This document shows, one piece after another, positions 7,117 through 22,214 of a stretch of DNA of 32,000 nucleotides (the first letter of the stretch is position 1; every line of letters starts with the position of its first letter). The stretch is from positions 1,090-33,089 of the forward strand of contig DAOUAT010000463.1 of assembly GCA_034433275.1 (NCBI GenBank). The letters are read 5' to 3'. Below the pieces are notes generated by a model that saw nothing but the letters and a program-made list of their open reading frames with translations, had not been told where the DNA came from and did no database searches. The translations under genes and the position numbers were made by a program. This stretch comes from Anaerolineae bacterium. Lineage in GTDB: Bacteria > Chloroflexota > Anaerolineae > CG2-30-64-16.

Positions 7117-7764
7117 CTAACCCTCCCGAACGTCTTGAATGCGAAGATCCGGCAAGGCCTGCAGGGTTTCGACAAGGACATTTTTCGGCAGGTTCGTCAC
7201 CTTCAGCACTGAGGCCCAAACGGCCGGATCGTCAGAGGGATAGGTCGCGAATACCGAGAGATAGCCGCCCTTTTGCGCAATGGCGGTGCTGATGCGTGCC
7301 ACCTCACCGGCACGGTCGGGCTGCAAGACAGTCACACGTACACCCTCGCGTCGGGCGCCCAGCAAGTTCACCATCACGTTGAAGATGTCATTGTCGCTGA
7401 TGATGCCCACCAGATCGCTCCCGCACATCACCGGCAGGCAGCCGATCTTTTTGTCGGCCATGATGCGGGCCGCCTCCTCCAGGGCCACATCTTCTTCGAT
7501 GGTGAACACTTTCTTGACCATGATGTGATGCGCCTTGATCTTGGCCAGCGCATAATTCACTGTAGCCTGGCTTACGCTGATCATGCCGGCAGGAATGGCC
7601 TGCAGCAATGAACGCTGAGTGATCAGTCCCACCAGCCTGCCGTTTTCATCCAGGATCGGCAGATGTCGGAAGTTGTGCTGTTGCATTAAAGCTTGCGCCT
7701 CGGTCACCGACATGTCCGGCCGGCCACAAACAGGATCAGACGTCATGCAATCTTTGACGAGCAT
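7117..7764 (-). CDS. CBS-pair + ACT domain protein (AcuB-like)
   Basis: The start is taken at ATG 7762..7764, 4 nt after the metF2 stop. MLVKDCMTSDPVCGRPDMSVTEAQALMQQHNFRHLPILDENGRLVGLITQRSLL plus a second CBS (HHIMVKKVFTIEEDVALEEAARIMADKKIGCLPVM..LVGIISDNDI), then an ACT-like VRVTVLQPDRAGEVARISTAIAQKGGYL. Confidence 0.75.
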   Translation of the reverse strand: MLVKDCMTSDPVCGRPDMSVTEAQALMQQHNFRHLPILDENGRLVGLITQRSLLQAIPAGMISVSQATVNYALAKIKAHHIMVKKVFTIEEDVALEEAARIMADKKIGCLPVMCGSDLVGIISDNDIFNVMVNLLGARREGVRVTVLQPDRAGEVARISTAIAQKGGYLSVFATYPSDDPAVWASVLKVTNLPKNVLVETLQALPDLRIQDVREG

Positions 7765-7768
7765 ACGA

Positions 7769-8710
7769 TCACTCCGAAAAAACAGTCTGCGGGGGCCTGG
7801 GATACAGGCCGGCGCGCGTGACGATCTCGGGCACGGCCTCGGCCCAGTGAACAGCCATGATATGAACGCCAGCGACCCCAGGAATCTGGCGCACCTGCTC
7901 GATGATCTCGACACAGATGTGGATGCCCTCTTCGGGCTGGGCGGCCTTCGGGGTCTTGCTCATCCGCTGGACGATCTCGTCGGGCACCTCCATGCCGGCC
8001 ACTTTGGTCGCCATGAAGTTGGCCTGTCCTGCCGACTTGACCGGTCCGACCCCGGCCAGGATGTAGACCTGCCTGTCCAGGCCCAGGTCGCGCACGCGAG
8101 CCATATAAGCCTCGAATCGTTTCACGTTGTAGATCAGTTGAGTCTGCACAAAACGCGCGCCCGCGGCCACCTTCTTGCCCAAACGCAACGGCCGATAGTC
8201 GAAAGGCGGCGCAAATGGATTGGCCGCTGCGCCGATGAACAACTGCGGCGGCAATGTGACCGACCGCCCGTTGTCCAAGGCGCCGTGCTCGCACAAGTTG
8301 CGCGCCATGCGGATCAGGTGCATGGAGTCCACGTCGTAGACACTCTTGGCTTCGGGATGGTCGCCCCAGATGCCGTGGTCGCCGCTCAAACAGAGCAGGT
8401 TGCGGATACCCAAGGCGGCCGCGCCTAACAGATCGGCCTGGATCGCCAGGCGGTTACGGTCGCGGCAGGTCATCTGGGCGACTGGCTCAATACCGTGGCG
8501 GAGCAAGATCGCCGCCACAGGAATGCTGGCCATCCGCACGCTGGCCGCCTGATTGTCGGTGACATTGACCGCGTCGGCGTAGTTGCGCAGGGTCTGCGCG
8601 TCGCGGGCAATTGCTGCCAGGTCTACCCCCTTCGGGGGCGAAAGCTCCGCGGCGACGGCAAATTGGCCGGCTTGCAACACCGCCTCCAGGTGGCTGATGG
8701 GAGTGGGCAC
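7769..8710 (-). CDS. metF: Methylenetetrahydrofolate reductase, acetogen-type small MetF (copy 2); start uncertain (GTG 8710 or upstream 8764)
   Basis: ...AAELSPPKGVDL...VNVTDNQAASVRMASI...QMTCRDRNRLAIQADLLGAAALGIRNLLCLSGDH...FIGAAANPFAPP...FVQTQLIYN.... It is a clear paralogue of the 11541..12527 gene. Confidence 0.85.
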   Translation of the reverse strand: MPTPISHLEAVLQAGQFAVAAELSPPKGVDLAAIARDAQTLRNYADAVNVTDNQAASVRMASIPVAAILLRHGIEPVAQMTCRDRNRLAIQADLLGAAALGIRNLLCLSGDHGIWGDHPEAKSVYDVDSMHLIRMARNLCEHGALDNGRSVTLPPQLFIGAAANPFAPPFDYRPLRLGKKVAAGARFVQTQLIYNVKRFEAYMARVRDLGLDRQVYILAGVGPVKSAGQANFMATKVAGMEVPDEIVQRMSKTPKAAQPEEGIHICVEIIEQVRQIPGVAGVHIMAVHWAEAVPEIVTRAGLYPRPPQTVFSE

Positions 8711-8711
8711 G

Positions 8712-9482
8712 TTAGAATTCCTCGATGATCGCTTGACGGATGGCTTCTTCGGTGGTCGCACCACTCAACTTTGGGTGTCCGTTGATGAAGACACCGTAGG
8801 CCACGCCGTAACGTTGCAACGTCTCGGGGCTGAGCACTTCGTGACGAACCACCACACGCTCCCCAAACTCGCGCGCGACGTCCAACAAGAGCATCTGGGT
8901 TGCAGTTTCGAAGGGACAGAGGTAGCCAGCCAGGATCAGGATCTCCACGGGCAGGCCACGGCGAGGTTGGAGGCGCGGCTCAAAGGGCCGGACGCTCACC
9001 TGGGGCTGGCCCAACGGCAGATAGAGCAACCTGCGGTCACCGGCTTCGTGCACAACTGTGAAGCCGCGGGCCAGGTAATGGCGGTAGTGCATCTGATCTT
9101 CGCGCGTGGTGGCTTCCACCAGGATGCCCTTGCTGCCCTGGTCGCGCACGGCGGCCTCAAAAGTCGCGAACAATTGCCGCCCCAGGCCCTGTCCCTGATG
9201 CCGGCGCTGCACCCACTCGCAGTAGAGCACGGCCACCCCCGGCTCGATCTCATAGGGGACCAGGGCCCGTTCCGACGCTGCGTAGTAGAGCTGGCCCACC
9301 GCAACGCCGTTGGCATCCTGCACGTGGTAGCCTTCGACGTAACGGCCCAGGTTTTGGCTCACCCAGGTGCGACAGACGTTGAGCGCAGCAGGCCAGGGCG
9401 TGGGCACTTCGGCCGTGCAACAAAAAGCCTGTTGGGCCTCTCCCGCGCTCTCAATCCGTTTTACAATCACTTGCCCGTCCAT
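8712..9482 (-). CDS. GNAT N-acetyltransferase fused to a C-terminal thioredoxin-fold domain
   Basis: The start is taken at ATG 9480..9482. The GNAT core is ...VAVLYCEWVQRRHQGQGLGRQLFATFEAAVRDQGSKGILVEA...YLARGF. The C-terminal VEILILAGYLCPFETATQMLLLDVAREFGERVVV...YGVFINGHPKL looks like a small thioredoxin-like fold with a single Cys (CPFE). Confidence 0.6.
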   Translation of the reverse strand: MDGQVIVKRIESAGEAQQAFCCTAEVPTPWPAALNVCRTWVSQNLGRYVEGYHVQDANGVAVGQLYYAASERALVPYEIEPGVAVLYCEWVQRRHQGQGLGRQLFATFEAAVRDQGSKGILVEATTREDQMHYRHYLARGFTVVHEAGDRRLLYLPLGQPQVSVRPFEPRLQPRRGLPVEILILAGYLCPFETATQMLLLDVAREFGERVVVRHEVLSPETLQRYGVAYGVFINGHPKLSGATTEEAIRQAIIEEF

Positions 9483-9505
9483 CCTTCCCCCCACAGCCGC
9501 TTTGT

Positions 9506-9976
9506 TCAGCCCTTGCGCACCACGCGCAGTCGCCGGTCCACGCCCCTCAGCAGATTGATCCACGACGACGTGCCCGGGAGCTGCCAGTTGACGGGCGGCT
9601 GCTCGGTCAACAGCTCCTGGCCCCAAATCGTCATCTTCTGGCTGCGCTCATAGGCATCCACCCAGACGCAGCGCATCTCCGGCTTGACCTCGCAGTGGCC
9701 GTTCAGGCGCACGCCACCGCACGGCCCGTTGCGCAGGTTCTTGGGACAGGTCATCGGGCAGGTCATGCCGGTGTAGTGCAGGATGCACTGGCCGCACAGG
9801 CGACAGTCGAAGACCGCCTTCTTGCTCAGATCCTCGAAAGGCAGGATCACCTTCGCAACGCGGTCGTAGCCGACGCGGGCAAAGAACGGATTCAGCCGGT
9901 GCAACACCCACTCGGCAGCCTGCCACAGGCGTTCGAGGGCGTGTGGATGATCTTGAATGATGCGGCGGAGGCCCAT
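9506..9976 (-). CDS. Short MetV-like protein (methylene-THF reductase C-terminal zinc-ribbon-like domain only)
   Basis: The start is taken at ATG 9974..9976, 2 nt after the hdrCB stop. ...FDCRLCGQCILHYTGMTCPMTCPKNLRNGPCGGVRLNGHCEV...CVW... parallels ...CQACGDCILDLTGGICPIARCSKQLLNGPCGGSQKGKCEV...CAW... in MetV (12541..13218). Confidence 0.7.
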   Translation of the reverse strand: MGLRRIIQDHPHALERLWQAAEWVLHRLNPFFARVGYDRVAKVILPFEDLSKKAVFDCRLCGQCILHYTGMTCPMTCPKNLRNGPCGGVRLNGHCEVKPEMRCVWVDAYERSQKMTIWGQELLTEQPPVNWQLPGTSSWINLLRGVDRRLRVVRKG

Positions 9977-9978
9977 TC

Positions 9979-11403
9979 CTAATCCACCAGCCCCTTCTGG
10001 CGCAACGCCGGCCGCGGGTCCACCAGGTTCTTCTCCAGGAGCGCCGTTTTCTCCCCCAACCCGAAGGCCAGCGCTGCAAGCTGCGTTGCATACAGCACCG
10101 GCATGGCGAAGCCCAGATCTTTGATCTGTGCCTGGCGGCCGTCCAGGTTGACGTGGCACAACGGACAAACGGTGACAACCACATCCGCGCCGCGCTCCCT
10201 GGCATTGCGCAGCACCTTGGCCGTCATCTGATGGGCCAACGGGGTTTGAGTCAGGCCCAAGGATCCGCCGCAACAATCGGTCTTGTAGTCCCACATCACC
10301 GGCTCGGCGCCGAGCCGACGCATCAGGTAGTCCATGTCCATGGGATACTCCGGATGCTCGGCGCCGGTGATCTCAGCCGGCCGGGTGATGTAGCAGCCGT
10401 AATAGCAGGCCACCTTCAGTCCGCTCAACGGTTTTTCCACCGCCCTCTCGATCCGATCCAACCCCGCCTTTTCGACTAGCGTCTCCACCAGGTGCATGAC
10501 CCGCACCTTGCCCGCATACTGGTAACCGATCTCCTGGGTGATCTGCTGCGCCATCTCTGGGTTGTGGGCCATCTCGTGGGCCGCGGTTTTGAAGCGGCTA
10601 TAGCAGGCAGCGCAGGGCGTGGTGACCTCCTCCAGGCCCATCTGCTCGATGATGGAGAGGTTGACCACCGGATACCTGGTTGCCAGGACGCGGTCGGTGG
10701 AGTGCGCCGGGCTGGAGCCACAGCAGATCCAGCCGGGCGGCTCAATCAGCTCCAGGTCGAGCTTCTCGGCGATGGCTTCGATGGTGCGGTGGTATTCGCT
10801 GGCCGACGAATGAAGCGAACAGCCGGGGTAGTAGGCAACCCGGGTGGGCGCAGCTTCCACCGCCTTAACCTGCCCGGGCTTAGGCGGCCGGGTGGGCAGC
10901 GAGACCAGATGCAACTTGCCCCGCTTGAGCATCTCCACCGCCATGTCCATATCTTTGAACAGGTTGCGGTTGAGCAGGTTCAAGCCGGCCATCAGCCCGA
11001 CTTCGTGGAGGCGGCCCATCAGCTTCACATCCATCAAGAAAAGGCGTGCGAAGCGATCCACCTCGGGGACGGCGGCCGGGATGCCCCGGCGACGGGCTTC
11101 GATGCGCAGCGCATCCATGACGGCCGCTATGTCAATGCCCTGGGGACAGCGCGTGGTACACGTCTCACACGAGGCGCACAGCCAGATGGCCTTGCTCTCC
11201 AGCACCGAAGCGTCTCCTAACTGCACGCTGCGCATCACCTGGTTGGGGGTCAAATCGAAATACTCGGCCAGGGGACAGCCGCTGGTGCACTTCAGGCACT
11301 GATAGCACAAGTAGGCGTTCTCGCCGACGATGCGCTGGATCGCCGCGGCCAAAGGTTCGGCTGTGGCCGGCGATGCAGCGGTGGTTGCTTTCATTATAGG
11401 CAT
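9979..11403 (-). CDS. Heterodisulfide reductase-like iron-sulfur protein, HdrC-HdrB fusion (HdrD-like): 2x[4Fe-4S] domain plus two CCG domains
   Basis: The start is taken at ATG 11401..11403, with GAGG 7 nt upstream. CYQCLKCTSGCP and CASCETCTTRCP are the ferredoxin motifs. YYPGCSLHSS...WICCGSSP and CYYGCYITRP...TDCCGGSLG are the two CCG domains. Confidence 0.85.
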   Translation of the reverse strand: MPIMKATTAASPATAEPLAAAIQRIVGENAYLCYQCLKCTSGCPLAEYFDLTPNQVMRSVQLGDASVLESKAIWLCASCETCTTRCPQGIDIAAVMDALRIEARRRGIPAAVPEVDRFARLFLMDVKLMGRLHEVGLMAGLNLLNRNLFKDMDMAVEMLKRGKLHLVSLPTRPPKPGQVKAVEAAPTRVAYYPGCSLHSSASEYHRTIEAIAEKLDLELIEPPGWICCGSSPAHSTDRVLATRYPVVNLSIIEQMGLEEVTTPCAACYSRFKTAAHEMAHNPEMAQQITQEIGYQYAGKVRVMHLVETLVEKAGLDRIERAVEKPLSGLKVACYYGCYITRPAEITGAEHPEYPMDMDYLMRRLGAEPVMWDYKTDCCGGSLGLTQTPLAHQMTAKVLRNARERGADVVVTVCPLCHVNLDGRQAQIKDLGFAMPVLYATQLAALAFGLGEKTALLEKNLVDPRPALRQKGLVD

Positions 11404-11446
11404 GTCATACCTCGTAATCAGCGGCAAGGAGACCTAACCCCCCCAA

Positions 11447-11499
11447 CCCACTTCCCCGAGGGGAAGTGGGAGCGGCCCTTCCTCCCCTGGTAGGGGAGG
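11447..11499. repeat. Two adjacent GC-rich perfect hairpins between metF1 and hdrCB (possible intercistronic terminator or RNA-processing structure)
   Basis: CCCACTTCCCC-GA-GGGGAAGTGGG (11447..11470) and CCTCCCCT-GGT-AGGGGAGG (11481..11499). Confidence 0.45.
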
Positions 11500-11540
11500 G
11501 GCCGGAGGAGAGATCCATCCACCACCGGCCGGGGGAGGGG

Positions 11541-12527
11541 TTAATCCACCACCGGCCGCGGCAAGAGGCCAGCCCCCTCGACAAGCGGCTTCACAGCTTC
11601 TTCCCACTCGATGGCCATGATGTGGATGCCGGCGACACCGGGGATCTCCCGGATCTGCTGAATCTGCTCGATGCAGATCTTGATGCCGGCATCGCGCCAG
11701 GCGGCCGCGCGCGCTTTCTTATCTTCTTTGGGAATGTTAGCAACGGCCGCTTCCATGCGATCCACGTATTCGTCGGCGACGATCATGCCCGGCACCTGGT
11801 CGCGCATGTATTTGGCCGCGCCGCTGCTCTTAAGCGGCCCCACGCCGGCCAGGATCTTCACTTTCTCGTGTATGCCCAGGTCCACGACCCGCTTCATGTA
11901 CTCCCGGAAGCGCGGGATGTCGTAGATCAGCTGTGTCTGGATGAAGTCCGCGCCCGCGGCAGCTTTCTTGGCCAGACGGTAGGGTCGGAACTCGAACGGG
12001 TCGCCGAAGGGATTGGCCGCCGCGCCGATGAAAAAGCGCGGGCCGCCGCCTTTGATCTCCTCGCCGCACTGGAATTTGCCTTCATCGCGCAGGCCCTTGA
12101 CGATTTGTACGAGCTGCAGCGAGTCCACGTCGTGGACGTTTTTGGCGAAGGGATGGTTGCCGAATGACTGATGATCGCCGGTCAGGCAGAGCACGTTTTT
12201 GATCCCCAGCGCACTCGCACCCAGCAGGTCGGCCTGCATGGCCAGCCGGTTGCGATCGCGGCAGGTCATCTGAATGATCGGCTCCAGCCCTGCGCGCAAC
12301 ACCAACACGCCGGCCGCAATGCTGCTCATGCGGACGATGGCCGTCTGGTTGTCAGTCAGGTTAACCGCGTCCACGACCCCCTTGAGCAAGGCCGCTTTCT
12401 TGCGGATGACCTCGGCATCATGGCTCTTGGGCGGCCCCAACTCGCCGGTGACCGCGAAGCATCCTTTGGTCAACACGCGCTCCAGGTTGCTGCCCGCCCA
12501 ATAACCGTTCGTTGAAATGTCAGACAT
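11541..12527 (-). CDS. metF: Methylenetetrahydrofolate reductase, acetogen-type small MetF (copy 1)
   Basis: The start is taken at ATG 12525..12527, preceded by AAGGAGG. MSDISTNGYWAGSNLERVLTKGCFAVTGELGPPKSHD...VNLTDNQTAIVRMSSI...QMTCRDRNRLAMQADLLGASALGIKNVLCLTGDH...FIQTQLIYD.... Confidence 0.9.
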   Translation of the reverse strand: MSDISTNGYWAGSNLERVLTKGCFAVTGELGPPKSHDAEVIRKKAALLKGVVDAVNLTDNQTAIVRMSSIAAGVLVLRAGLEPIIQMTCRDRNRLAMQADLLGASALGIKNVLCLTGDHQSFGNHPFAKNVHDVDSLQLVQIVKGLRDEGKFQCGEEIKGGGPRFFIGAAANPFGDPFEFRPYRLAKKAAAGADFIQTQLIYDIPRFREYMKRVVDLGIHEKVKILAGVGPLKSSGAAKYMRDQVPGMIVADEYVDRMEAAVANIPKEDKKARAAAWRDAGIKICIEQIQQIREIPGVAGIHIMAIEWEEAVKPLVEGAGLLPRPVVD

Positions 12528-12540
12528 AGCCAGGTCCTCC

Positions 12541-13218
12541 TTATTCTTCCGCCAACCGCAAATCGTCCCGCACAATCCGGCGCGGGCCACCATCACGGCT
12601 GGTACGCCAGTCTTTGGACGGCTGAACTTGCAGCAAACGATCGAGCATCCCCAGCGCGCCCATCCGCTCCCAGATCAACTGCCAGGCGCAAGGGGTTTCC
12701 TCGCTCACCTCGCACTTGCCCTTTTGCGAGCCGCCGCACGGCCCGTTGAGCAGCTGTTTCGAGCAGCGTGCAATGGGGCAGATGCCGCCGGTCAGGTCGA
12801 GGATGCAGTCGCCGCAGGCCTGGCAGCGCTCCTCCCAGATGCCCTGCTCGGTGGGCAGGCCCATGAAGCGGGTATTCAGGCCGGGCAACACACGCTTGTC
12901 GGGGAAACGCTCAGCCAACGTCTGCACGCCGACACCACAGCCCAAGGAGAGGATGGCGTCGTAATTGGCCCACCGCTCGCGCAAGGGATCAATGTACTCC
13001 CACTCGCATTGGCGTTGAACGGTCACCTCGTCCATCGCGATCCCGTGGCCGTCCAGCCGGGTGGCCATGCGCAGCGCCGATGCCAGGATGCCGACCTCCT
13101 TTTCGCCGCCCGCCAGGCAGACGGTGACGCAGGTGCCGCAGCCCACCACAAGCACCTTTTGGTAGCTTTCGAGCATCTCTTTGATTTCGGCCAGCGGTTT
13201 TTGTTCAGCAACAATCAT
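12541..13218 (-). CDS. metV: MetV (methylene-THF reductase-associated zinc/iron-sulfur subunit)
   Basis: 225 aa. N-terminal VLVVGCGTCVTVCLAGGEKEV, and C-terminal CQACGDCILDLTGGICPIARCSKQLLNGPCGG. Its ATG overlaps the mvhD1 stop (ATGA at 13215..13218). Confidence 0.85.
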   Translation of the reverse strand: MIVAEQKPLAEIKEMLESYQKVLVVGCGTCVTVCLAGGEKEVGILASALRMATRLDGHGIAMDEVTVQRQCEWEYIDPLRERWANYDAILSLGCGVGVQTLAERFPDKRVLPGLNTRFMGLPTEQGIWEERCQACGDCILDLTGGICPIARCSKQLLNGPCGGSQKGKCEVSEETPCAWQLIWERMGALGMLDRLLQVQPSKDWRTSRDGGPRRIVRDDLRLAEE

Positions 13219-13670
13219 TCCTCACCTCCGACGGTATCTTTCTTCGCAAAGTGCCGACCCAACGGATTAGGTCCGAGTTTCCGAATGTGCGCGTCCATCT
13301 CGGTTGCAATCTCGGCGAAACGCGCGCCCATGGCCGCTGACAGGTTGACCATCTGGACGCGTTCGGCCCCCAAACCGATCTGGTTCAGCAGGTCACGCAC
13401 GTACTCGATGCGTTTTTTGGCTTGCAGATTACCTTCCAGGTAATGGCACTCTCCGGGCAGTCAGCCAGCGGCAAAGACGCCGTCGGCGCCCGCCTCGAAG
13501 GCGTGCAACACGTGCAGCACGTCGAGCTTGCCGGTGCAGGGCAGCTCGAAAACCTTCACCGAAGACGGGTATTGGATGCGCAGGCCACCTGCGAGATCGG
13601 CTGCCGCATAGGCACAATGATGGCAGCAAAAGGCAATGATGCGCGGCGTCCAGCCAACGTCTTCGCTCAT
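13215..13670 (-). CDS. mvhD: MvhD-like protein (methyl-viologen-reducing hydrogenase delta subunit family) with in-frame TGA at 13461..13463: predicted selenocysteine
   Basis: Track ORFs 13461..13670 and 13215..13400 are in the same frame (456 nt in total). Read-through gives ...LHAFEAGADGVFAAG-[TGA]-LPGECHYLEGNLQAKKRIEYVRDLLNQIGLGAERVQMVNLSAAMGARFAEIATEMDAHIRKLGPNPL.... This aligns residue-for-residue with the paralogue (18587..19021) ...LDAFEHGADGVYIVG-C-PIGNCHHVRGNERARKRIERAKKLLDEIGIGGQRLEIYFVSGGMGETFARVAREMTDRIQALGPNPL. Confidence 0.8.
13423..13448 (-). promoter_or_regulatory. Candidate bacterial SECIS stem-loop downstream of the mvhD1 UGA
   Basis: On the mRNA: UGA-N16-AUUACC-UGGAA-GGUAAU, a 6-bp stem (13444..13439 / 13433..13428). 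It is extendable by UGC/GCA across a small internal loop. The apical loop contains GG and lies about 26-30 nt from the UGA. Folded by eye. Confidence 0.45.
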
Positions 13671-16600
13671 TGCAATACCTCCTCGAACAGGACGTCAATC
13701 TTCGCCAGGACCTGCGCGTCGGTATAGTGCATCAGTTGAATGGCCCGGGCCGGGCAGGCCGCCGCACACGAGCCACAACCGTGACAAAGGGCCGCCTCGA
13801 TCTGCGCGGCGCCCACGATGCCGCCAACGCCGGTGAGCGACGCCACTACGCGCGGGGCATCATAAGGGCAGGTGCGCACGCAGGTCAAGCAGGCCACGCA
13901 GCGCGCGTCATCCACGACCGCCACGCGGCCGCCGACCTCAAGGGTATCCTTGGAAAGGAGCGTGGCCGCGCGCGCTGCGGCCGCCTGGGCCTGGACGATG
14001 CTCTCCGCCAACAGCTTGGGATAGTGCGCCAGGCCTGCCATAAAGATGCCCTCGGAGGAGAAATCCACCGGCCGCAGCTTGACGTGCGCCTCCAGGAAGA
14101 ACCCCTCCATATCCACCGAGACCTTCAGCCGCTTGCTCAATTCGCGCGCACCTTCGCTGGGCACCACCGACATGCTCAACACCAACAGATCGGGCCGCAA
14201 GACCATCTCACGGCCCAGGGGCGGCTCCCAAACTCGCACCTCGAGGCCGGTAGATTGATCAGCCGGTAAATTCAGTAGATCACGATTTCGATGCTCCAAG
14301 CCGGTCTGCCCGCCCTGGCTACGCCACGCGGGCCAGGGTGACCAGCGGTTGAGGGTCACAGACCCCCTCTGAGCCTGAATCTGTGCTCCACTGACATTCA
14401 TAGACTGGGCGCCAGACAATGTGTTGTGCATCGCAGATCCCTGGGCGGCGATTGTCACCTGGGGCTTACGATCGAAGTCGTAGCGCACAAAGCGCACTCC
14501 GGCCCGCCGCGCCTCGGTATACAACCGTTCCTTGAACCCATAGGTGCGGATGTCCCGATAGAGCACCGTGATCTCCGCGGCGGGGTTAAGCCGTTTGAGC
14601 ATCAGCGCGTTCTTCAGCGCCGTGGTGCAGCAGATGCGGGCACAGTATTGCTCGGCCGGGCCAACACACTGGATCATGACAACGGATGACGGGTGCTGGG
14701 TATCCGGTATTGGGGAATGCTCAATACCTGATGCCCGATTTGCCAGCCACGCCTCGAACTCTTGCTGCGTTAGAATCCTCGGGTCGCTCCCATACCCGTA
14801 CTCGTTCCCGCGATACTCCTGGCCGCCGGTAGCGACGATCGTTGCGCCGTGGTACACCTCGAAACGGCGGAAGGTGGCGCCCAGGTCCTGTTGCAGGACC
14901 GACGTGAAATTGCCCTGAACCCCGCCAGTCTCCACCAGCTCTGTCTGCAGATGGAGGTTGATCAACGGATGGGATTCGACGCGATGGATCAGGCTGGTCA
15001 GGTACTCATGAACATTGGATATCTGGCATTGGGTATAAGAACCAACATCCACTACCGACTGCCCAAGACCATGTTCCAACCCCAAGTCGCGCAGCGTGTA
15101 GTGCACCTTGCGCAGGTTGCCCCCCAATTCCCTGCTCCGCTCCGCCAGGTGCACCGGGAAGCCCTGTTCGGCCAGGGTGAGGGCAGCCGTCATGCCCGCC
15201 GCGCCGCCGCCGATGACCAGGACGCTCTTGCAGGTCGTCAGCGGCGTCGTGTGCAGCGGCTGGAGCCGGGCCGCGCGCGCAACGGCCATGCGCACCAGCT
15301 CCTTGGCTTTGGCTGTGGCTGTCGGCCGGTCGTCGGAGTGTACCCAGGAGCACTGGTTACGAATATTGGCCATCTCGAATAGATACGGGTTCAGCCCGGC
15401 CGCCCGGATGCTGCTCTGGAACAGCGGCTCATGGGTCAGCGGCGTGCACGACGCGACGACGACTCGATTGGCCCCTAACTCCTTCACTTTCTCGGTGATG
15501 TGTATAATGCTGTCCTGCGAGCAGGTATAGAGATTGTGCTCGGCATGGATGACGTGGGGCAGCGAACGAGCATATTCGGCCACCGCGGGCACATCCAGAA
15601 AGCCGGCGATGTTCGATCCGCAGTGGCAGACGAAAACAGTTACCCGCGGCTCCTCATGGGTTACATCGCGCTCCGGCGGGTATTCCGGCACACGGGTCAG
15701 CGTGCCGCGCGCACGCGCCAGCAATGCGCCAGCCGCGGCCGCCGCGCCGCTCGCCTCCACCACCGATTCGGGGATATCCTTGGGTTCGCGGAACGGGCCG
15801 ACCGCGTAAATGCCGGGCTTGCTGGTCTGCAATGGATCGAACAGAACAGTGTGGCAAAAGCCATAATCATCCAACTCAATGCCCAGTCGCTGCCCCAACT
15901 CCCGCACCTCGGGGGCGACCTCCATGCCAACGGAAAGGACGACCAGGTCGAATTCTTCCTGACGAATAGGCGAGTGGGCGAATGGCGGATCTATCTCCTG
16001 CTGATGCGCTGGTTCGTCCACGTAGCGCAAGATCAAATTGCCGTTGGCCGGGTTCTCTTTGAGCGCCGAAATGCGACAACGGGTGTACTTGATGCCGTAT
16101 TTCTCAATCGCCCGCCGATAATAGGGCTCATAGCCTTTGCTGAAAGCGCGCATGTCCATCATGAAGACATGAACTTCCGTGTCCCGCTCGTGTTCGATGG
16201 CCATGATGGCCTGTTTGGTGGCGTACATGCAGCAAACGGCCGAGCAGTAATCGTGCGACCGGTCGCGCGAGCCGATGCACTGCAAGAACGCGATCTTCCG
16301 CGGTCGGCGACCATCTGACGGCCGCTTCACATGTCCCATGGTGGGACCGGAGGCGCTCATCAGGCGTTCCAGTTGCAACGCGGTGATCGCGTTGGGATAG
16401 CGGCCCCAGCCGAACTCCTCTGCAAGCTCGGCCCGATAGACCTGATAGCCCGGGGCCAGGATGACCGCGCCGACGTTGAACTCGCAGGTGCGTTCGACCA
16501 TATCATGGTCAACCGCGCCCACGCCACACTTGTACCAGCAGCTCAAACACTCGGAGCAGATGCCGCAGGCCAGACAACGGGCAGCCTCGGCCTGGGCCAG

Positions 16601-18553
16601 CTCGGCCGTATAGCCCATCTCAACTTCAGCAAAGCCCTTGACCCGCTGCTCCGGCGGCAGTTCGGGCATGGGCACGCGCGGGGTGATCTTGAGCTCCCCA
16701 CGCTGGATGCGCTCGGCGAGCTCGGCCTGGGTCAGCTTGACCACCGGGAGTTCGGGTTTCGGCTTGGGCTCCAACGCTTCTCCGCGCAGGTAGCGGTGGA
16801 TGGACTCGGCGCACTTATGGCCGCTGGCGACCGCCTCGATCACAAACGCGGTACCGCTCACGCTGTCGCCAGCCGCAAAGACGCCGGGCCGGGTGGCCGC
16901 GAAAGTGTTGGGGTTTATCGCAATGGTGCGTTTGGCGGTCAGCCCCACCCCGGCGTCGGCCGGGATAAACGCCAAACCGGCCCGCTGGCCCACAGAGAAG
17001 ATCACCACGTCGGCCGGCAGCACGTGCTCTGAGCCGGGTACCGTCTCGACCGAGAGCCGGCCCTGGTCATCGAACTCGAAATGCGCTACGCGACGGCACT
17101 CGACACCGCCGGCCCGGCCATTGCTGCCTTCAACCACGCGTACGAAGGTGCGATCGTTGTGAATGACGATCCCCTCATCCAGCGCGGCCTGCACCTCCCA
17201 GGCATGCGCGGGCATGTTCTCGCGGCCTTCCAGGCATGCCATCTGCACCTCGGCCGCGCCCAGGCGGACGGCGGTACGCGCCACATCAATCGCCACGTTG
17301 CCGCCGCCCAGCACCAGCACCCGCTTTCCCTGTATCTGCGATCGGGGATCAGCGCCGACTGATTTACTGAACGCGTCGCCGCCCTGTAGGACTCGCTGAT
17401 TCGCTGATTCGTCCCTCAGCTCGGCCAGCCGCACGTCGCGCAGGAATTGGGTATTGATCAGCACGCCTTCAAGGTTGTTGCCGGGAATCGGCAGGCGAAC
17501 GCCTTCGTGTGCGCCAACCGCAATGAGCACGGCCTTGTAACCCGCATTGAAGAGATCGTCCAGGTTGACAATGGTGGTGTTGAGGCGCAGCTCAACCCCC
17601 AGGTCAACGATATCCTGCACCTCGCGATCCACGATCCAACCTGGCAGGCGATATTCGGGCACGCCGACGCGCAACATGCCGCCCGCCACCGGCAACGCCT
17701 CGAAAACCGTCATCGGGTAGCCCAGCAGGGCCAGGTCTTGTGCCGCGGTCAGGCCACATGGCCCCGCGCCGATGATCGCCACCCGCTCTTCGTACTGCTT
17801 GGGGACAGGGTCACGGGGCACGCGCGGCTGCGCGTATATCGTGTCAGTGACGAAGCGCTTGAGCGCATGGATGTTGACCTGGTCATCCACTTTGCCGCGG
17901 TTGCAGGCATCCTCGCAGCGATGGTTGCAGATGCGGCCACAGATGCCGGGGAAGGGGTTGTCCTCCTTGATCACGCGCAGGGCATCGTCGAAGCGGCCCT
18001 CGCGGATCAGCGCGATATAGCCTTGCGCGCGCTGGTGCGCCGGACAGGCATCGCGACAGGGCGCGATCCCCCGCTTCTCGATGACGTAGGCATTGGGAAT
18101 AGCTTGCGGGTAGAGCTTATGGGCGGCGCGTTGTTGCTTCAGGCCTTCATCGAAATGGGAGGGGATCACCACCGGGCAGACCTGGGCACATTCGCTGCAG
18201 CCGGTGCACTTCGCCACGTCAATGTAGCGCGGCCGCGTGCGCACGATCACGGTAAAATTGCCTGCCGTGCCCCGCAGGCCAGTGACATCGCTGTCTGTCA
18301 GGATTTCGATGTTAAGGTGCCGGCCCGTCTCGACCAGCTTAGGCGAGATGGTGCACATTGCGCAGTCGTTGGTGGGGAAGGTCTTGTCCAGTTGCGCCAT
18401 ATGGCCGCCGATGGCCGACTTGTGTTCCACCAGGTAGACTTTGTAACCGGCCTCAGCCAGGTCAAGGCTGGCCTGCATCCCCGCGATGCCGCCCCCAACG
18501 ACCATCACCGCCCCGATGACGTTTTCTGAAGCGTCGCGACCGTTGCCAGCCAT
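13667..18553 (-). CDS. hdrA: Giant HdrA-family flavo-iron-sulfur protein (1628 aa): HdrA FAD module interrupted by an NfnB/GltD-like NAD(P)H:FAD module, then a second complete HdrA-like unit ('HdrL-like')
   Basis: VMVVGGGIAGMQASLDLAEAGYKVYLVEHKSAIGGHMAQLDKTFPTNDCAMC is the HdrA FAD domain, and CTGCSECAQVCP is a ferredoxin motif. CRDACPAHQRAQGYIALIREGRFDDALRVIKEDNPFPGICGRICNHRCEDACNRG, RVAIIGAGPCGLTAA, KRVLVLGGGNVAIDVA and GVFAAGD form the GltD/NfnB-like part (about 16778..18073). FLQCIGSRDRSHDYCSAVCCMYATK follows. VFVCHCGSNIAG...VVVASCTPLTHEPLF...ANIRNQCSWVH corresponds to the N-terminal domain of canonical HdrA. Then KSVLVIGGGAAGMTAALTLAEQG and MIQCVGPAEQYCARICCTTALK. The C-terminus has CVACLTCVRTCP and CHGCGSCAAACP. 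Its stop overlaps the mvhD1 ATG (ATGA). Confidence 0.85.
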   Translation of the reverse strand: MAGNGRDASENVIGAVMVVGGGIAGMQASLDLAEAGYKVYLVEHKSAIGGHMAQLDKTFPTNDCAMCTISPKLVETGRHLNIEILTDSDVTGLRGTAGNFTVIVRTRPRYIDVAKCTGCSECAQVCPVVIPSHFDEGLKQQRAAHKLYPQAIPNAYVIEKRGIAPCRDACPAHQRAQGYIALIREGRFDDALRVIKEDNPFPGICGRICNHRCEDACNRGKVDDQVNIHALKRFVTDTIYAQPRVPRDPVPKQYEERVAIIGAGPCGLTAAQDLALLGYPMTVFEALPVAGGMLRVGVPEYRLPGWIVDREVQDIVDLGVELRLNTTIVNLDDLFNAGYKAVLIAVGAHEGVRLPIPGNNLEGVLINTQFLRDVRLAELRDESANQRVLQGGDAFSKSVGADPRSQIQGKRVLVLGGGNVAIDVARTAVRLGAAEVQMACLEGRENMPAHAWEVQAALDEGIVIHNDRTFVRVVEGSNGRAGGVECRRVAHFEFDDQGRLSVETVPGSEHVLPADVVIFSVGQRAGLAFIPADAGVGLTAKRTIAINPNTFAATRPGVFAAGDSVSGTAFVIEAVASGHKCAESIHRYLRGEALEPKPKPELPVVKLTQAELAERIQRGELKITPRVPMPELPPEQRVKGFAEVEMGYTAELAQAEAARCLACGICSECLSCWYKCGVGAVDHDMVERTCEFNVGAVILAPGYQVYRAELAEEFGWGRYPNAITALQLERLMSASGPTMGHVKRPSDGRRPRKIAFLQCIGSRDRSHDYCSAVCCMYATKQAIMAIEHERDTEVHVFMMDMRAFSKGYEPYYRRAIEKYGIKYTRCRISALKENPANGNLILRYVDEPAHQQEIDPPFAHSPIRQEEFDLVVLSVGMEVAPEVRELGQRLGIELDDYGFCHTVLFDPLQTSKPGIYAVGPFREPKDIPESVVEASGAAAAAGALLARARGTLTRVPEYPPERDVTHEEPRVTVFVCHCGSNIAGFLDVPAVAEYARSLPHVIHAEHNLYTCSQDSIIHITEKVKELGANRVVVASCTPLTHEPLFQSSIRAAGLNPYLFEMANIRNQCSWVHSDDRPTATAKAKELVRMAVARAARLQPLHTTPLTTCKSVLVIGGGAAGMTAALTLAEQGFPVHLAERSRELGGNLRKVHYTLRDLGLEHGLGQSVVDVGSYTQCQISNVHEYLTSLIHRVESHPLINLHLQTELVETGGVQGNFTSVLQQDLGATFRRFEVYHGATIVATGGQEYRGNEYGYGSDPRILTQQEFEAWLANRASGIEHSPIPDTQHPSSVVMIQCVGPAEQYCARICCTTALKNALMLKRLNPAAEITVLYRDIRTYGFKERLYTEARRAGVRFVRYDFDRKPQVTIAAQGSAMHNTLSGAQSMNVSGAQIQAQRGSVTLNRWSPWPAWRSQGGQTGLEHRNRDLLNLPADQSTGLEVRVWEPPLGREMVLRPDLLVLSMSVVPSEGARELSKRLKVSVDMEGFFLEAHVKLRPVDFSSEGIFMAGLAHYPKLLAESIVQAQAAAARAATLLSKDTLEVGGRVAVVDDARCVACLTCVRTCPYDAPRVVASLTGVGGIVGAAQIEAALCHGCGSCAAACPARAIQLMHYTDAQVLAKIDVLFEEVLQ

Positions 18554-18586: not shown

Positions 18587-19021
18587 CTAGGTAGATTTTC
18601 GTAGCGGATTCGGGCCCAGTGCCTGAATCCGGTCGGTCATCTCGCGCGCCACGCGCGCAAACGTCTCTCCCATGCCGCCGGAAACGAAGTATATCTCCAA
18701 CCGTTGGCCGCCGATCCCGATCTCGTCCAACAATTTCTTCGCCCGTTCGATGCGCTTCCTGGCCCGCTCGTTGCCTCGCACGTGATGACAGTTGCCGATG
18801 GGACAGCCGACGATGTAAACACCATCCGCGCCGTGTTCAAAGGCGTCCAGGATGTACTTGACATCGGCCTTGCCGGTGCAAGGCATCTTCACCAGCTTGA
18901 CGTTGGCCGGATATTGGATGTGCAACGCACCCGCCGTGTCGGCCGACATGTCGGCGCAATAGATGCACAGGAACGCCGTGATCTCGGGCTCGAAACCGTT
19001 GCTACTGTTATCGCTCATCAT
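18587..19021 (-). CDS. mvhD: MvhD-like protein (Cys form)
   Basis: 144 aa. ...ITAFLCIYCADMSADTAGALHIQYPANVKLVKMPCTGKADVKYILDAFEHGADGVYIVGCPIGNCHH.... Confidence 0.9.
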   Translation of the reverse strand: MMSDNSSNGFEPEITAFLCIYCADMSADTAGALHIQYPANVKLVKMPCTGKADVKYILDAFEHGADGVYIVGCPIGNCHHVRGNERARKRIERAKKLLDEIGIGGQRLEIYFVSGGMGETFARVAREMTDRIQALGPNPLRKST

Positions 19022-19079
19022 TCCCCATCCTGAAGGATCCGCTCGTCACACAGTACGCAATGGGCAGCACATGCACGTC

Positions 19080-22000
19080 TTACACCGCCCACGCGCCGGT
19101 CAACTCGCCCGCCAATTGGACATCCAGATAGGCCATGAGCTGGATGGCTTTCGCCGGACATTCGGCCGTGCAGGTGCCGCAGCCCTGACACAATGCCGGC
19201 TCGATATATGCCGCGCCCACGATCTCGCCCACACCGGTCATGTCCGGCCGGATCTGGGGAATGTCGAAGGGGCAGGTGCGCACGCAGGTCAGACAACCGA
19301 CGCACTTGCTCTGATCCACCACCGCGATCGGGCCGCCGTAGTACATAGGCTCCTTGGAGAGCAGTGTGATGGCCCGACCGGCGGCTGCCTGCGCGTTGGT
19401 GATCGCCTCCTCGATAAACTTGGGATAGTGGGCCATGCCGGCCATGAAGATCCCTTCTTCCATGAAGTCCATAGGCCGCATCTTCAGGTGCGCTTCCTGG
19501 AAGAATCCCTCGACCGACAACGGCACATCCAGAATCTGCGCCAGCTCTTCGGTGCCTGGCGCAGGAACGACCGCCATGCTCAGGGCGACCAGACCGGGCG
19601 ACAGGATCATCTCGCGACCGAAAACCTGTTCCCAAGCCCGCACCTCGAGCTTGCCGTCGGCCGCACGGCTTACCTGGGGCAGATGATGCTCGTCATAGCG
19701 CATGAAGACCACACCCCGGCGTCGCGCCTCCGTGTAGAACTGTTCCCGGAAGCCGTAGGTGATCATATCCTTGTAAAGCACATACACCTGACAGTCCGGG
19801 TTGAGCATCTTGACCCGGATGGTGTTCTTCATGGTGTTGGTGCAGCACACCCGGCTGCAATAGTCCGTTTCTGACGGCGGGTGGACGCACTGGATCATCA
19901 CCACCTGCTTGAGTTGCGTGATTTCCTCTGGACGGTGGACGATGATCTCCTCTAGATCGAGCTGGGTTACCACCCGGGGGTCCTGGCCCAGCAGATAGAC
20001 ATCCCCGCGCCATTCCTCGCCGCCGGTAGCTACAATGGTAACGGCATGACGCACCTCGGTCTCGGCATCCACAGGCCCGGCATGAGTGACAATCACTGCT
20101 TGAAAGTCGCCCGTACGGCCGGTGTGCGATTGCACTTCGGAACGCGTCAGCACCTGAATGCGCTCATGGCCGCGCACCCGGTTGACCAGGTCGCGCAGCA
20201 GGCGCTGGGGGTTTTGCCCTTCGGCCACGTAGAAGATATGGCGCAGGTTGCCGCCCAACTGGGCACTGCGCTCCACCAGCGTCACATCGAAACCCGCGTC
20301 GGCAATGGAGAGCGCGGCCTGCATCCCCGCCACACCGCCGCCGATGACCAGCGCCCGGCGCGTCGGCGTTATGCTGAGCTTCTGGATCGGCTGCGCCATG
20401 AAAGCGCGTTCGACCGCCATGCGCACCGTCTCGCGGGCTTTGCGCGTCGCGAGCTCCGGCTGGCTCTCGTGCACCCACGCGCACTGCTCGCGGATGTTGG
20501 CCATCGTCAACAGATACGGGTTCAGCCCAGCCTGGCGGATGACCTTCTGGAAAAGCGGTTCGTGCGTGCGCGCCGTGCATCCCGCAACCACAACCCGGTT
20601 GAGATTCTGCTCGACGATGGCCTGGCGAATGCGTTGCAGATCGGCCCCCTGGCAACCGTAAGCGAGCAACTCGGCATGGGTCACGCCCGGCAACCGTAAG
20701 GCGAACTCCTGGACGGCCCGGGTGTCAATCGTGCCATCAATGGCCGGCTCACAGCGGCAGATGAACACCCCTATCCGCGGCGGCTCATGGCTCACATCCC
20801 TTTCCTCCGGATATTCGTTAGCCGCAGAAAGGAATGGATATTGACGGCTGGAGGGGCTGCTGCCTACCTGGCCTCGCAACAGGCGCATCACCTCGGCGGC
20901 CGCGCCGGAAGCATCCAGGAAAGTCTCGGAGATCTCCTTGGGCGACAGGAAAGTGCCACAGACATACACCCCCGGCACACTGGTTTCCAGCGGCGCGAAC
21001 TTGTCGGTTTGACAGAAGCCGTATGGGTTCAGCTCGATGCCCAGCTCGCCGGCCAGCTCCCTAGCCGAACGCGGGGGCACCGTGCCGAGCGAAAGCACCA
21101 CCAGATCGAACCGCTCCGTGACCATCTGGCCATTGGGGCCGGGATAGTGCAAGATCAGATCCTGAGTAGCGGGGTCTTCTTTGACGTACGAGATGCGCGC
21201 CCGGGTGTACTCCACCCCGAACCGGCGCCGCGCCGACTCGTAGTAGGCGTTGAACTCCTTATTGAACGCCCGCTCATCCATCATGAAGATCTGTGCGTGG
21301 ACGCCGGGCAGGCGCTCTTTGGCAATCATCGCCTCTTTGGTGGCATACATGCAGCAGATAGACGAGCAGTAGGGGTGCTTCTGATCGCGCGAGCCAACGC
21401 ACTGCAGCCAGGCGATCCGCCGCGGACGCTGTCCGTCCGAGGGCCGCAGCACCACCCCCTCCGTGGGCCCCGAACGACTCGCCAGCCGCTCATACTGCAT
21501 GGAGTGGATGATGTTACGATAGCGGCCGAAACCGAGCTCTTCGTACTCATGGGCATCAGTCAACTCGTAGCCCAACGCCATGATGATCGCGCCAACGTGA
21601 ACCTGCGATTCGCGAGCTTCTTCCTTCAGGTCTATACATTGTGTGGGACACACAGTCGCACAACATCCACAATCGTCGCAATAGGGGCCGCGATCAATGA
21701 TGTAGGCATTGGGGATCGAGCGAACGGCCGGTTTATAGGCTGCCTTGCGCGTGGCCAGCTCCTGTTGAAAGCTGCTGGGCAGCGTCACCGGGCACACCAG
21801 CGAACAGAGGTCACAGTTGATGCAGCGCGCCGGGTCCACATAGCGCGGCTCATGGCGCAGAGTCACGTGAAAGTCGCCAGCCTGCCCGGTCACGCCGATG
21901 ACATTAGTCAGGGTCAGCACATGGATGTTCGGGTGCAGGTTGTGATCCTGGAAGGCGGGGGAGATAGCAGGCCGTGTGCAGCCGTAGCCGTGATCCGAGG

Positions 22001-22214
22001 TGCCGCGACACAGCACACAGTCGTGGGTGGGAAACATATAGCCCAATTGAGCCACGCGACCACCCAGGGCCGGCGCGGTCTCGACCAGCCATGCCTGCAG
22101 GCCAGCTTCGGCTAGATCCACAGCCGCCCGCATGCCAGCAACGCCACCGCCGATGACCATCACGTCGCCGGTCCTGCCTTGTGCGCTCACCTGAGAGAGT
22201 GGTAATTCAGTCAT
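19080..22214 (-). CDS. hdrA: HdrA-family flavo-iron-sulfur protein with two HdrA-type modules in one polypeptide (1044 aa), no NfnB-like insert
   Basis: VMVIGGGVAGMRAAVDLAEAG...DCVLC, then CINCDLCSLVCP, CDDCGCCATVCP and WLQCVGSRDQKHPYCSSICCMYATKEA. VFICRCEPAIDG...VVVAGCTARTHEPLF...ANIREQCAWVH follows. Then ALVIGGGVAGMQAALSIADAGF and MIQCVHPPSETDYCSRVCCTNTMK. The C-terminus has CVGCLTCVRTCP and CQGCGTCTAECP. Confidence 0.85.
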   Translation of the reverse strand: MTELPLSQVSAQGRTGDVMVIGGGVAGMRAAVDLAEAGLQAWLVETAPALGGRVAQLGYMFPTHDCVLCRGTSDHGYGCTRPAISPAFQDHNLHPNIHVLTLTNVIGVTGQAGDFHVTLRHEPRYVDPARCINCDLCSLVCPVTLPSSFQQELATRKAAYKPAVRSIPNAYIIDRGPYCDDCGCCATVCPTQCIDLKEEARESQVHVGAIIMALGYELTDAHEYEELGFGRYRNIIHSMQYERLASRSGPTEGVVLRPSDGQRPRRIAWLQCVGSRDQKHPYCSSICCMYATKEAMIAKERLPGVHAQIFMMDERAFNKEFNAYYESARRRFGVEYTRARISYVKEDPATQDLILHYPGPNGQMVTERFDLVVLSLGTVPPRSARELAGELGIELNPYGFCQTDKFAPLETSVPGVYVCGTFLSPKEISETFLDASGAAAEVMRLLRGQVGSSPSSRQYPFLSAANEYPEERDVSHEPPRIGVFICRCEPAIDGTIDTRAVQEFALRLPGVTHAELLAYGCQGADLQRIRQAIVEQNLNRVVVAGCTARTHEPLFQKVIRQAGLNPYLLTMANIREQCAWVHESQPELATRKARETVRMAVERAFMAQPIQKLSITPTRRALVIGGGVAGMQAALSIADAGFDVTLVERSAQLGGNLRHIFYVAEGQNPQRLLRDLVNRVRGHERIQVLTRSEVQSHTGRTGDFQAVIVTHAGPVDAETEVRHAVTIVATGGEEWRGDVYLLGQDPRVVTQLDLEEIIVHRPEEITQLKQVVMIQCVHPPSETDYCSRVCCTNTMKNTIRVKMLNPDCQVYVLYKDMITYGFREQFYTEARRRGVVFMRYDEHHLPQVSRAADGKLEVRAWEQVFGREMILSPGLVALSMAVVPAPGTEELAQILDVPLSVEGFFQEAHLKMRPMDFMEEGIFMAGMAHYPKFIEEAITNAQAAAGRAITLLSKEPMYYGGPIAVVDQSKCVGCLTCVRTCPFDIPQIRPDMTGVGEIVGAAYIEPALCQGCGTCTAECPAKAIQLMAYLDVQLAGELTGAWAV

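Follow-up and report, generated by a model that had tools for sequence, protein, structure and literature searches.

We analyzed a gene block of about 15 kb in a 32,000-nucleotide stretch of DNA from an Anaerolineae bacterium (Chloroflexota; GenBank assembly GCA_034433275.1, contig DAOUAT010000463.1, positions 1,090 to 33,089), referred to here as the window, to which all coordinates apply unless a locus is named. The block (7117-22214) carries eleven genes, most of them for proteins of the Hdr, MvhD, MetV, and MetF families. It is probably a composite of three separable modules in a Wood-Ljungdahl gene neighborhood: a possibly auxiliary HdrA2-MvhD2 pair (Module 1), a Moorella-type methylene-tetrahydrofolate (methylene-THF) reductase (Module 2), and an autonomous methylene-THF reductase (MTHFR) cassette (Module 3). 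The locus is a real and conserved variant of a known core enzyme and not a new kind of enzyme. The core enzyme and part of the duplication were on record by 2017; the pairing of Module 1 with HdrL and the gene trio in Module 3 are seemingly undescribed, and both modules are uncharacterized. The initial annotation of this DNA, made from the sequence, had proposed a possibly new architecture. In the searchable literature, we found no biochemical characterization of the same architecture elsewhere, nor any description of the combination of HdrA2-MvhD2 with HdrL or of the trio formed by a short MetV, a GNAT plus thioredoxin-fold (GNAT-Trx) protein, and MetF2.

Gene content and organization of the block

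Genes were called from open reading frame (ORF) listings, translation, and Pfam scans, and each protein was searched back against the window by tblastn. Relatives of HdrL were collected in a scan with one genome per species (at least 599 confirmed relatives); 80 HdrL-anchored loci were kept, and all proteins of the window were placed on them by tblastn. Loci are cited by number. L081 (GCA_900174595.1), a relative with an 87% identical HdrL, served as the reference for the ratio of nonsynonymous to synonymous substitution rates (dN/dS). Loci examined for the GNAT-Trx family were L081, L085, L086, L087, L088, L089, L090, and L091.

All eleven genes lie on the minus strand, as do the other window features described below. 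Their coordinates were confirmed by ORFs, translation, and Pfam, with E values ranging from 5.9e-06 (GNAT, the weakest) to 7.4e-47. In the direction of transcription, the products are HdrA2, MvhD2, HdrL, MvhD1, MetV1, MetF1, HdrCB, short MetV, GNAT-Trx, MetF2, and a CBS-pair protein. ATGA overlaps flank MvhD1 on both sides (13667-13670 and 13215-13218), and gaps of 2 nt (9977-9978), 1 nt (8711), and 4 nt (7765-7768) were likewise read directly from the sequence. The remaining intergenic gaps measure 58, 33, 13 (between the adjacent MetV1 and MetF1), and 23 nt, and the MetF1-HdrCB spacer measures 137 nt. By tblastn, the window contains two HdrA-type, two MvhD, two DUF5981 (MetV-type), and two MetF genes and one HdrCB gene. 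Thus, the gene identities, order, shared direction, tight junctions, copy numbers, and twin hairpins given in the initial annotation were all borne out by ORFs, Pfam, tblastn, and direct reading. No NCBIfam model reached its cutoff for any of the ten proteins scanned; the HdrA/HdrA2 models match HdrA2 in three stretches, and the HdrB and HdrC models match HdrCB, in each case below cutoff. Both C...CCG...CxxC motifs of HdrCB can be read in its sequence.

Paralogue identities within the block are 55% (MetF), 43% (DUF5981), 52% (MvhD), and 44% (HdrA), and the duplications are therefore old. Relative to L081, the eleven genes and three genes that flank them have dN/dS values of 0.05 to 0.14 (dS, 0.68 to 1.08), which means purifying selection throughout, and none is decaying. 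A recent or decaying duplication, which the initial annotation had named as grounds for setting its proposal aside, is ruled out by these values (43 to 55% paralogue identity; dN/dS ≤0.14 versus L081).

A Moorella-type methylene-THF reductase core

Judged from domain content and gene order, HdrL, MvhD1, MetV1, MetF1, and HdrCB (13215-18553 plus 9979-13218) form an orthologue-type member of the Moorella-type (Hdr-type) methylene-THF reductases. We regard Module 2 as an ordinary member of this class because HdrL (13667-18553; 1628 amino acids [aa]) is of the HdrA type published for the Moorella enzyme. The HdrA of Moorella thermoacetica (162.8 kDa, 1487 aa) has two thioredoxin reductase (TrxR)-like modules, of which the first carries a GltD-type FAD/NAD(P)H insert and the C-terminal one is without the inserted ferredoxin domain (PMC9430772). 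In HdrL, Pfam places Fer4_20 and Pyr_redox_2 at aa 164-578, and aa 159-674 match NfnB, Stn transhydrogenase, GltD, and dihydropyrimidine dehydrogenase structures in the PDB; the NfnB/GltD-like FAD/NAD(P)H module (16559-18070; aa 162-665) is inserted in the ferredoxin domain. A phmmer search of the PDB aligned HdrL with methanogen HdrA (5ODC_A) in four permuted blocks (aa 15-161 with 145-291, 666-846 with 293-475, 967-1104 with 2-139, and 1443-1625 with 475-652). The domains run in the order TrxR-like module 1 (its inserted ferredoxin domain split by NfnB/GltD), HdrA N-terminal domain, TrxR-like module 2, and C-terminal ferredoxin domain; the second module has its N- and C-terminal domains and no inserted ferredoxin domain. 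On the permuted alignment and the NfnB/GltD match, HdrL is a fused pseudo-dimer of two HdrA-like modules. It has more than 7900 homologues. The initial annotation had contrasted this locus with Moorella on the grounds that one HdrA carries its own pyridine-nucleotide module. That contrast does not hold: the Moorella HdrA has exactly the HdrL architecture, and the module is therefore the norm for this enzyme class and not a new feature.

The other subunits agree with the class. MetF1 (11541-12527; PF02219, E = 1.3e-35), the TIM-barrel subunit, lies beside the Cys-rich, full-length MetV1 (12541-13218; 225 aa; PF12225, E = 6e-37), in which an N-terminal Cys-containing domain precedes an 8-Cys DUF5981. 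MvhD1 (13215-13670; PF02662, E = 7.4e-47) lies between hdrA and metV, and HdrCB (9979-11403; Pfam CCG twice and Fer4_17) joins an HdrC part with two [4Fe-4S] motifs and an HdrB part with two intact CCG motifs in one fused polypeptide. The Moorella complex MetFV-HdrABC-MvhD (Mock et al. 2014, via PMC5861303 and PMC9430772) likewise has MetF with a full-length MetV, MvhD between hdrA and metV, HdrB and HdrC, a very large HdrA with a GltD-type insert, a Wood-Ljungdahl context, and the order hdrA-mvhD-metV-metF. The full Moorella order is hdrCBA-mvhD-metVF, as given in PMC5736913. In contrast, HdrC and HdrB are here fused and encoded downstream of metF, MvhD is a predicted selenoprotein, and the locus additionally carries a GltD-less HdrA-MvhD pair and a further MTHFR cassette. 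A search of the PDB with the MetV1 sequence retrieved no solved structure of a MetV-containing enzyme.

The nearest HdrL relatives (64 to 84% identity) all come from metagenome bins labeled Chloroflexota, Anaerolineae, or Thermoflexia; relatives that carry names belong to Anaerolineae, Thermoflexus, and Promineifilaceae. HdrL, MvhD, MetV, and MetF genes are directly adjacent in 28/80 HdrL-anchored loci, which belong to Chloroflexota, Desulfobacterota, Planctomycetota, Nitrospinota, Aminicenantes, and other groups. Loci from Bacillota, Clostridia, and Spirochaetota contain the HdrL-cluster genes in a different order, and in the Bacillota/Clostridia loci L040 and L067, full-length HdrL homologues adjoin MetV and MetF.

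Three further systems resemble the core. Marine Anaerolineae clusters of the type hdrA-mvhD-metVF-hdrCB (DscP3, An-B22, and SM23 bins), from the same phylum, were reported, in the cluster descriptions of Sewell et al. (2017; PMC5736913), to have a fused hdrCB and two non-identical metV/metF sets in single-cell genomes; duplicated metVF and fused hdrCB were therefore already known. According to the same source, a two-component system flanks metF_1 in DscP3, as in L088 and L090. In these cluster descriptions, there is no discussion of a further HdrA-MvhD pair, of genes for a GNAT-Trx or a CBS protein, or of selenocysteine in MvhD. HdrL of Desulfobacterium autotrophicum HRM2 (Strittmatter et al. 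2009; PMC2702500) is a fusion of the HdrA/glutamate-synthase type with an NADH site, followed by mvhD and often belonging to a selenoprotein system; HdrA domains, a glutamate-synthase small-subunit-like NADH module, and mvhD downstream are all found in the window. In D. autotrophicum, HdrL was either assigned to sulfite reduction or given no firm role, and it was considered peculiar to that organism, whereas in the window and in at least 28/80 loci HdrL is tied to metVF. In the ANME-1 HdrA-NfnB fusions HdrA9 to HdrA11 (Chadwick et al. 2022; PMC9012536), an NfnB-like insertion of about 500 aa also interrupts the inserted ferredoxin domain; unlike HdrL, these proteins are archaeal and, by the same account, are not clustered with metF in ANME-1.

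Both modules of HdrL and both modules of HdrA2 keep the Lys409-equivalent that contacts flavin N5 in HdrA (PMC6405883). In the second Rossmann fold of the HdrL insert, CLEG stands where four NADP-linked homologues have YRR[TS], and C440, L441, and E442 are nearly invariant in the family alignment. By the usual Rossmann rule, this difference suggests NADH and not NAD(P)H in general, to which the initial annotation had assigned the module; the NADH dependence reported for the Moorella enzyme (PMC5861303) is in line with CLEG. In Module 2, NADH would be oxidized at the FAD of the GltD insert, and electrons would pass through the clusters of the split ferredoxin domain to the HdrA flavins and on through MvhD and MetV to the MetF flavin, where methylene-THF would be reduced. 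A second branch may run via HdrCB or a low-potential carrier.

An in-frame insertion of about 57 aa (AQGSAMHNTLSGAQSMNVSGAQ...) occupies aa ∼1372-1428 of HdrL (window ∼14270-14440). The loop concerned, which belongs to the second HdrA module, is hypervariable, and the L081 protein and ten other homologues are without the insertion.

Predicted selenocysteine in MvhD1

MvhD1 is a well-supported selenoprotein candidate. Its in-frame TGA (13461-13463) stands, by alignment, where the conserved G-C-x-x-G-x-C-H motif has its first Cys; in 106 MvhD homologues from the loci compared, the codon at this position is TGA in 28 and TGC or TGT in 78. A stem-loop resembling a selenocysteine insertion sequence (SECIS) lies at 13419-13454. 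Its core hairpin (AUUACC-UGGAA-GGUAAU, 13428-13444), whose first nucleotide follows the U of UGA by 19 nt, is predicted in 15/16 folded UGA homologues; L082 has the same sequence with a different minimum-energy fold, and L062 and L073 show a compensatory A-U to U-A change. MvhD-type selenoproteins are already well known (PMC2702500), and the predicted selenocysteine of MvhD1 is a real but ordinary feature. In UGA-containing homologues (L001 to L087), H-[YF]-L-[ED] almost always follows the second Cys of the motif, and Cys forms are more varied; the SECIS hairpin appears to constrain the MvhD protein sequence.

The HdrA2-MvhD2 pair, a possible auxiliary module

HdrA2 (19080-22214; 1044 aa; assigned by Pfam) is a two-module HdrA-like flavo-iron-sulfur protein without the GltD insert. 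It is colinear with HdrL, at 44% identity, except for the 505-aa insert of HdrL, and its inserted ferredoxin domain is intact, as read from the Cys motifs. MvhD2 (18587-19021; PF02662, E = 6.4e-44), 52% identical to MvhD1, is a [2Fe-2S] protein of the FlpD/MvhD family in the Cys form (motif VGCPIGNCHH). By alignment, HdrA2-MvhD2 is an old paralogue of the HdrL/MvhD1 pair without the NADH module. A comparable HdrA occurs in the HdrCBA-MvhD-MetVF cluster of Sporomusa ovata (PMC9430772), where a 101-kDa protein with two TrxR-like modules and no GltD resembles HdrA2; unlike HdrA2, it is the sole HdrA of its cluster and is without the additional ferredoxin domain that HdrA2 retains.

The order HdrA2-MvhD2-HdrL-MvhD-MetV-MetF-HdrCB recurs in the Chloroflexota-like loci L001, L003, L006, and L063 and in L081; L057 and L079 show a variation of it that includes extra genes. 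Contig ends interrupt the cluster in L004, L005, L066, and L082, which are consistent with this order. L081 has the identical 11-gene order and the same flanks, with proteins 80 to 93% identical. The MvhD2-HdrL junction is soft: a DUF4258/MqsA-like toxin-antitoxin pair is inserted there in L081 (9340-9893 of that locus), a CBS gene in L082, and about 3 kb in L004. Farther downstream, two histidine kinases and a response regulator lie between MetF1 and HdrCB in L088 and L090, and a fumarase lies between HdrCB and the second cassette in L087.

Within the window, HdrA2-MvhD2 is not accompanied by a separate HdrBC or MetVF, and it adjoins HdrL in most Anaerolineae loci. For these reasons, and at low certainty, Module 1 could be an electron module, auxiliary or alternative, whose interface is of the ferredoxin type and which uses the HdrCB/MetVF core.

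Other arrangements were seen in this group. In L009 (8258-21973), a single MetV-MetF-HdrCB is preceded by a tandem of two full HdrL-MvhD pairs, and L057 (1-18926) carries three HdrA-type genes; multiplication of the Hdr electron-input module is therefore recurrent in Anaerolineae.

A probably autonomous MTHFR cassette

Module 3 begins with short MetV (9506-9976; 156 aa; PF12225, E = 5.6e-28), which consists of the 8-Cys DUF5981 without the N-terminal domain of about 110 aa found in MetV1 and is 43% identical to MetV1 over 76 aa. MetF2 (7769-8710; PF02219, E = 2e-41), a second MTHFR with a GTG start, is 55% identical to MetF1; its best 120 matches listed are 76 to 100% identical to it. In a neighbor-joining tree, MetF2 belongs to a clade of its own, sister to the Hdr-linked MetF1 clade, and MetF1 clusters with Hdr-linked MetF of Chloroflexota and Desulfobacterota. 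MetF2 retains the equivalents of Glu28 and Asp120 of Escherichia coli MetF.

Between these two genes lies GNAT-Trx (8712-9482; 256 aa; Pfam GNAT, E = 5.9e-06). The family is rare: a word-indexed search returned 274 clusters, and a profile search of 1.84 billion representatives returned 208 at E ≤ 0.001 and 19 at E ≤ 1e-30. Four Cys residues (C22, C37, C88, and C189) are invariant in the family alignment, as are Q96 and G99 of the Q/R-x-x-G-x-G/A acyl-CoA loop. The AlphaFold model (predicted local distance difference test, 90.9) contains a GNAT fold with a Foldseek probability of 1.00 to GNAT structures, and sequence and model together place the protein among predicted GNATs. The C terminus is modeled as beta-alpha-beta-alpha-beta-beta-alpha, with an invariant C189-P190 just before the first helix of the domain (H190-204) and no CxxC. 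Hence, the GNAT half of the label in the initial annotation stands (Pfam and Foldseek), and a thioredoxin fold is suggested more weakly by Thioredoxin_3 (E = 0.075) and the model topology. A Rosetta-stone fusion of GNAT-Trx with MetF was sought and rejected, as the matching representatives of 550 to 650 aa are without an MTHFR domain.

In every locus examined, GNAT-Trx adjoins short MetV and a MetF2 orthologue. The cassette lies downstream of HdrCB in L081, L087, L088, and L090 and at a contig end in L085. In L086, L089, and L091, its neighbors are housekeeping genes, and no Hdr gene lies closer than 10 kb. Because the trio also occurs away from Hdr genes, short MetV/GNAT-Trx/MetF2 is read from these gene neighborhoods as an autonomous cassette, one that became attached to the Hdr cluster in this sub-lineage. 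Module 3 would then be an Hdr-independent, probably ferredoxin- or thiol-linked, and metabolite-regulated MTHFR.

The last gene of the block encodes a CBS-pair protein (7117-7764; CBS, E = 1.3e-30). The same 215-aa CBS gene follows MetF2 on its 3' side in L081, L085, L088, and L090, that is, only in the sub-lineage in which the cassette joins the Hdr cluster, and we take its product to be a putative ligand-sensing regulator. It had been labeled CBS-ACT; the CBS pair is confirmed, and a possible ACT-like C terminus scores below threshold (Pfam ACT, E = 0.033; TTHA0829-like ACT, E = 0.087).

Additional MTHFR-type genes occur beside related Hdr clusters. Many Desulfobacterota and related loci have a divergent MetF-like gene of about 290 aa, roughly 32% identical to MetF2, directly upstream of HdrL (L032, L034, L035, L041, L043, L051, L052, L054, L068, and L072; at ∼9000-9950 in most). 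In eight translated sequences, the position that corresponds to Asp120 of E. coli MetF varies among D, E, V, and G, and this protein may therefore not be a normal MTHFR. Fused DUF5981+MTHFR genes encoding 499 to 526 aa lie beside HdrA2 or HdrL in the close Chloroflexota relatives L082 (2947-4527) and L083 (6939-8438 and 8479-9990), in the latter in tandem inside an acs/cdh cluster. The fused proteins were rejected as orthologues of short MetV plus MetF2, since in the neighbor-joining tree they form a deep clade apart from both MetF1 and MetF2.

Alternative readings of the locus

The initial annotation had offered two readings, namely, two reductase assemblies sharing one HdrCB and one very large complex. 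In the former, an NADH-driven HdrL-MvhD1-MetV1-MetF1 and an HdrA2-MvhD2-short MetV-MetF2 with another donor would both depend on HdrCB, which would explain the 2:2:2:2:1 copy numbers and would suit the co-directional genes with very short gaps, the purifying selection on all genes, and the use of a GltD-less two-module HdrA by the Hdr-type MTHFR of S. ovata (PMC9430772). Several relatives speak against this proposal, however. In L086, L089, and L091, the 10 kb around the MetF2 cassette are free of Hdr genes; HdrA2-MvhD2 adjoins HdrL with no MetF2 cassette within 4 to 6 kb downstream of HdrCB in L001, L006, and L063; and the cassette always brings its GNAT-Trx partner, not an Hdr partner. We consider shared use of HdrCB by two reductases unlikely. 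A single supercomplex of both HdrA-type proteins, both MvhD, both MetV/MetF pairs, and HdrCB is disfavored by the same loci and is the least probable of the readings weighed here. The genes appear to form a single transcription unit (about 15 kb), upstream of which lies one promoter-like site and within which no terminator was called; this would agree with a supercomplex, as would the 11-gene order kept in L081 at 80 to 93% protein identity and the large assemblies that methanogen Hdr is reported to form. Against this, the module junctions are not conserved, given the insertions in L081, L082, and L004, the kinases in L088 and L090, and the fumarase in L087. Furthermore, each two-module HdrA is already a fused pseudo-dimer (PMC9012536), so that a second HdrA is not needed.

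HdrA2-MvhD2 might instead be unrelated to methylene-THF reduction, a generic redox module for another reaction (e.g., with the TrxR-like flavoprotein or FolD encoded nearby) that is merely co-located. HdrA-MvhD pairs do occur in many non-MetF contexts among the 80 loci, and insertions are tolerated at the HdrL junction. However, the pair keeps its place immediately upstream of HdrL in Anaerolineae relatives whose HdrL identity ranges from 57% to 87%, and it is without partner genes of its own in the window; mere co-location is slightly less likely than a shared HdrCB. Slightly more doubtful again is a joint reading in which HdrA2-MvhD2 would be the missing low-potential arm that docks ferredoxin and HdrL would feed NADH, with a shared HdrCB and MetV1F1 completing an NADH-dependent, ferredoxin-reducing bifurcating enzyme; in parallel, short MetV/GNAT-Trx/MetF2 would be an MTHFR of an unrecognized type, in which a subunit that binds acyl-CoA couples the synthesis of methyl groups to acetyl-CoA status. 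If true, the low-potential-arm part would name the long-debated second acceptor.

Several points also weigh against the three-module composite that we prefer. The composition of the complexes is read entirely from gene order, and the 2-nt gap between HdrCB and short MetV, followed by gaps of 1 and 4 nt, would equally fit Modules 2 and 3 being co-translated into one assembly. The role of HdrA2-MvhD2 is the weakest step, as HdrA-MvhD pairs without HdrBC are common in many unrelated contexts. The NADH assignment follows a rule of thumb for Rossmann folds, and orthology with the Moorella enzyme draws on a published domain description and on Bacillota loci at 40 to 52% identity.

Genomic setting and other features of the window

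The G+C content of the window is 60 to 69%. Upstream of the block lie genes for FolD, a TrxR-like flavoprotein, malic enzyme, an AcsE-like pterin-binding protein, CooC, and RACo; acyl-CoA dehydrogenase and DUF3786 genes lie downstream. By these gene assignments, the surroundings are a Wood-Ljungdahl gene neighborhood, and in L083, the Hdr cluster is embedded in an acs/cdh cluster. The transcription unit likely starts at a promoter-like site (TAGACA-17-TAGAAT, 22303-22331) between FolD and HdrA2, in a spacer of 229 nt, as judged by the match of this site to the consensus, although such sites are not enriched over shuffled sequences. An Rfam search (E-value mode) of the leader upstream of HdrA2 (22150-22500) gave no match and no riboswitch.

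The MetF1-HdrCB spacer contains twin GC-rich hairpins (11447-11499), both perfect, at 11481-11499 and 11447-11470. The predicted fold has an energy of -77 kcal/mol, with a modest z-score of -2.45. The hairpins are without a U-tract, no terminator was called on the minus strand, and neither sequence nor spacing is conserved in L081, L083, L084, or L087. A conserved regulatory element is ruled out by this lack of conservation in relatives, the modest z-score, and the lack of an Rfam match; we take the hairpins to be a lineage-specific intra-operon stabilizer or attenuator. One copy of a 15-nt direct repeat, CGGCCGGTGGTGGAT (within 11500-11556), lies at the 3' end of MetF1; the other follows some 15 nt further along and immediately precedes the hairpins.

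On the 3' side of the CBS gene, a YbaK/tRNA_edit gene (6768-7082) matches only residues 2-106 of its 157-aa L081 orthologue. The segment of about 2.9 kb that follows (4042-6750), with a trypsin-like protease gene and a GNAT gene, is absent from L081 and looks like an insertion that truncated the YbaK/tRNA_edit gene. The TrxR-like flavoprotein (23439-24350), encoded between malic enzyme and FolD and at the same location in L081, has STVS in place of the redox-active CATC and a C-terminal end of KCEDC; NCBIfam TrxR and AhpF models match it below their cutoffs.

Implications for Hdr-type methylene-THF reduction

Which electron partner the Hdr-type methylene-THF reductase uses has long been a gap in Wood-Ljungdahl energetics, and this locus does not settle the matter. 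The comparison shows that the Moorella-type core is widespread far beyond the acetogenic Firmicutes, often with a second MetF-type gene alongside, and that in Anaerolineae it is accompanied by a second, GltD-less HdrA-MvhD pair. The GNAT-thioredoxin-fold partner of a short-MetV/MetF pair is rare, conserved, and seemingly undescribed. For recombinant work on which module interacts with ferredoxin, the locus supplies natural variants.

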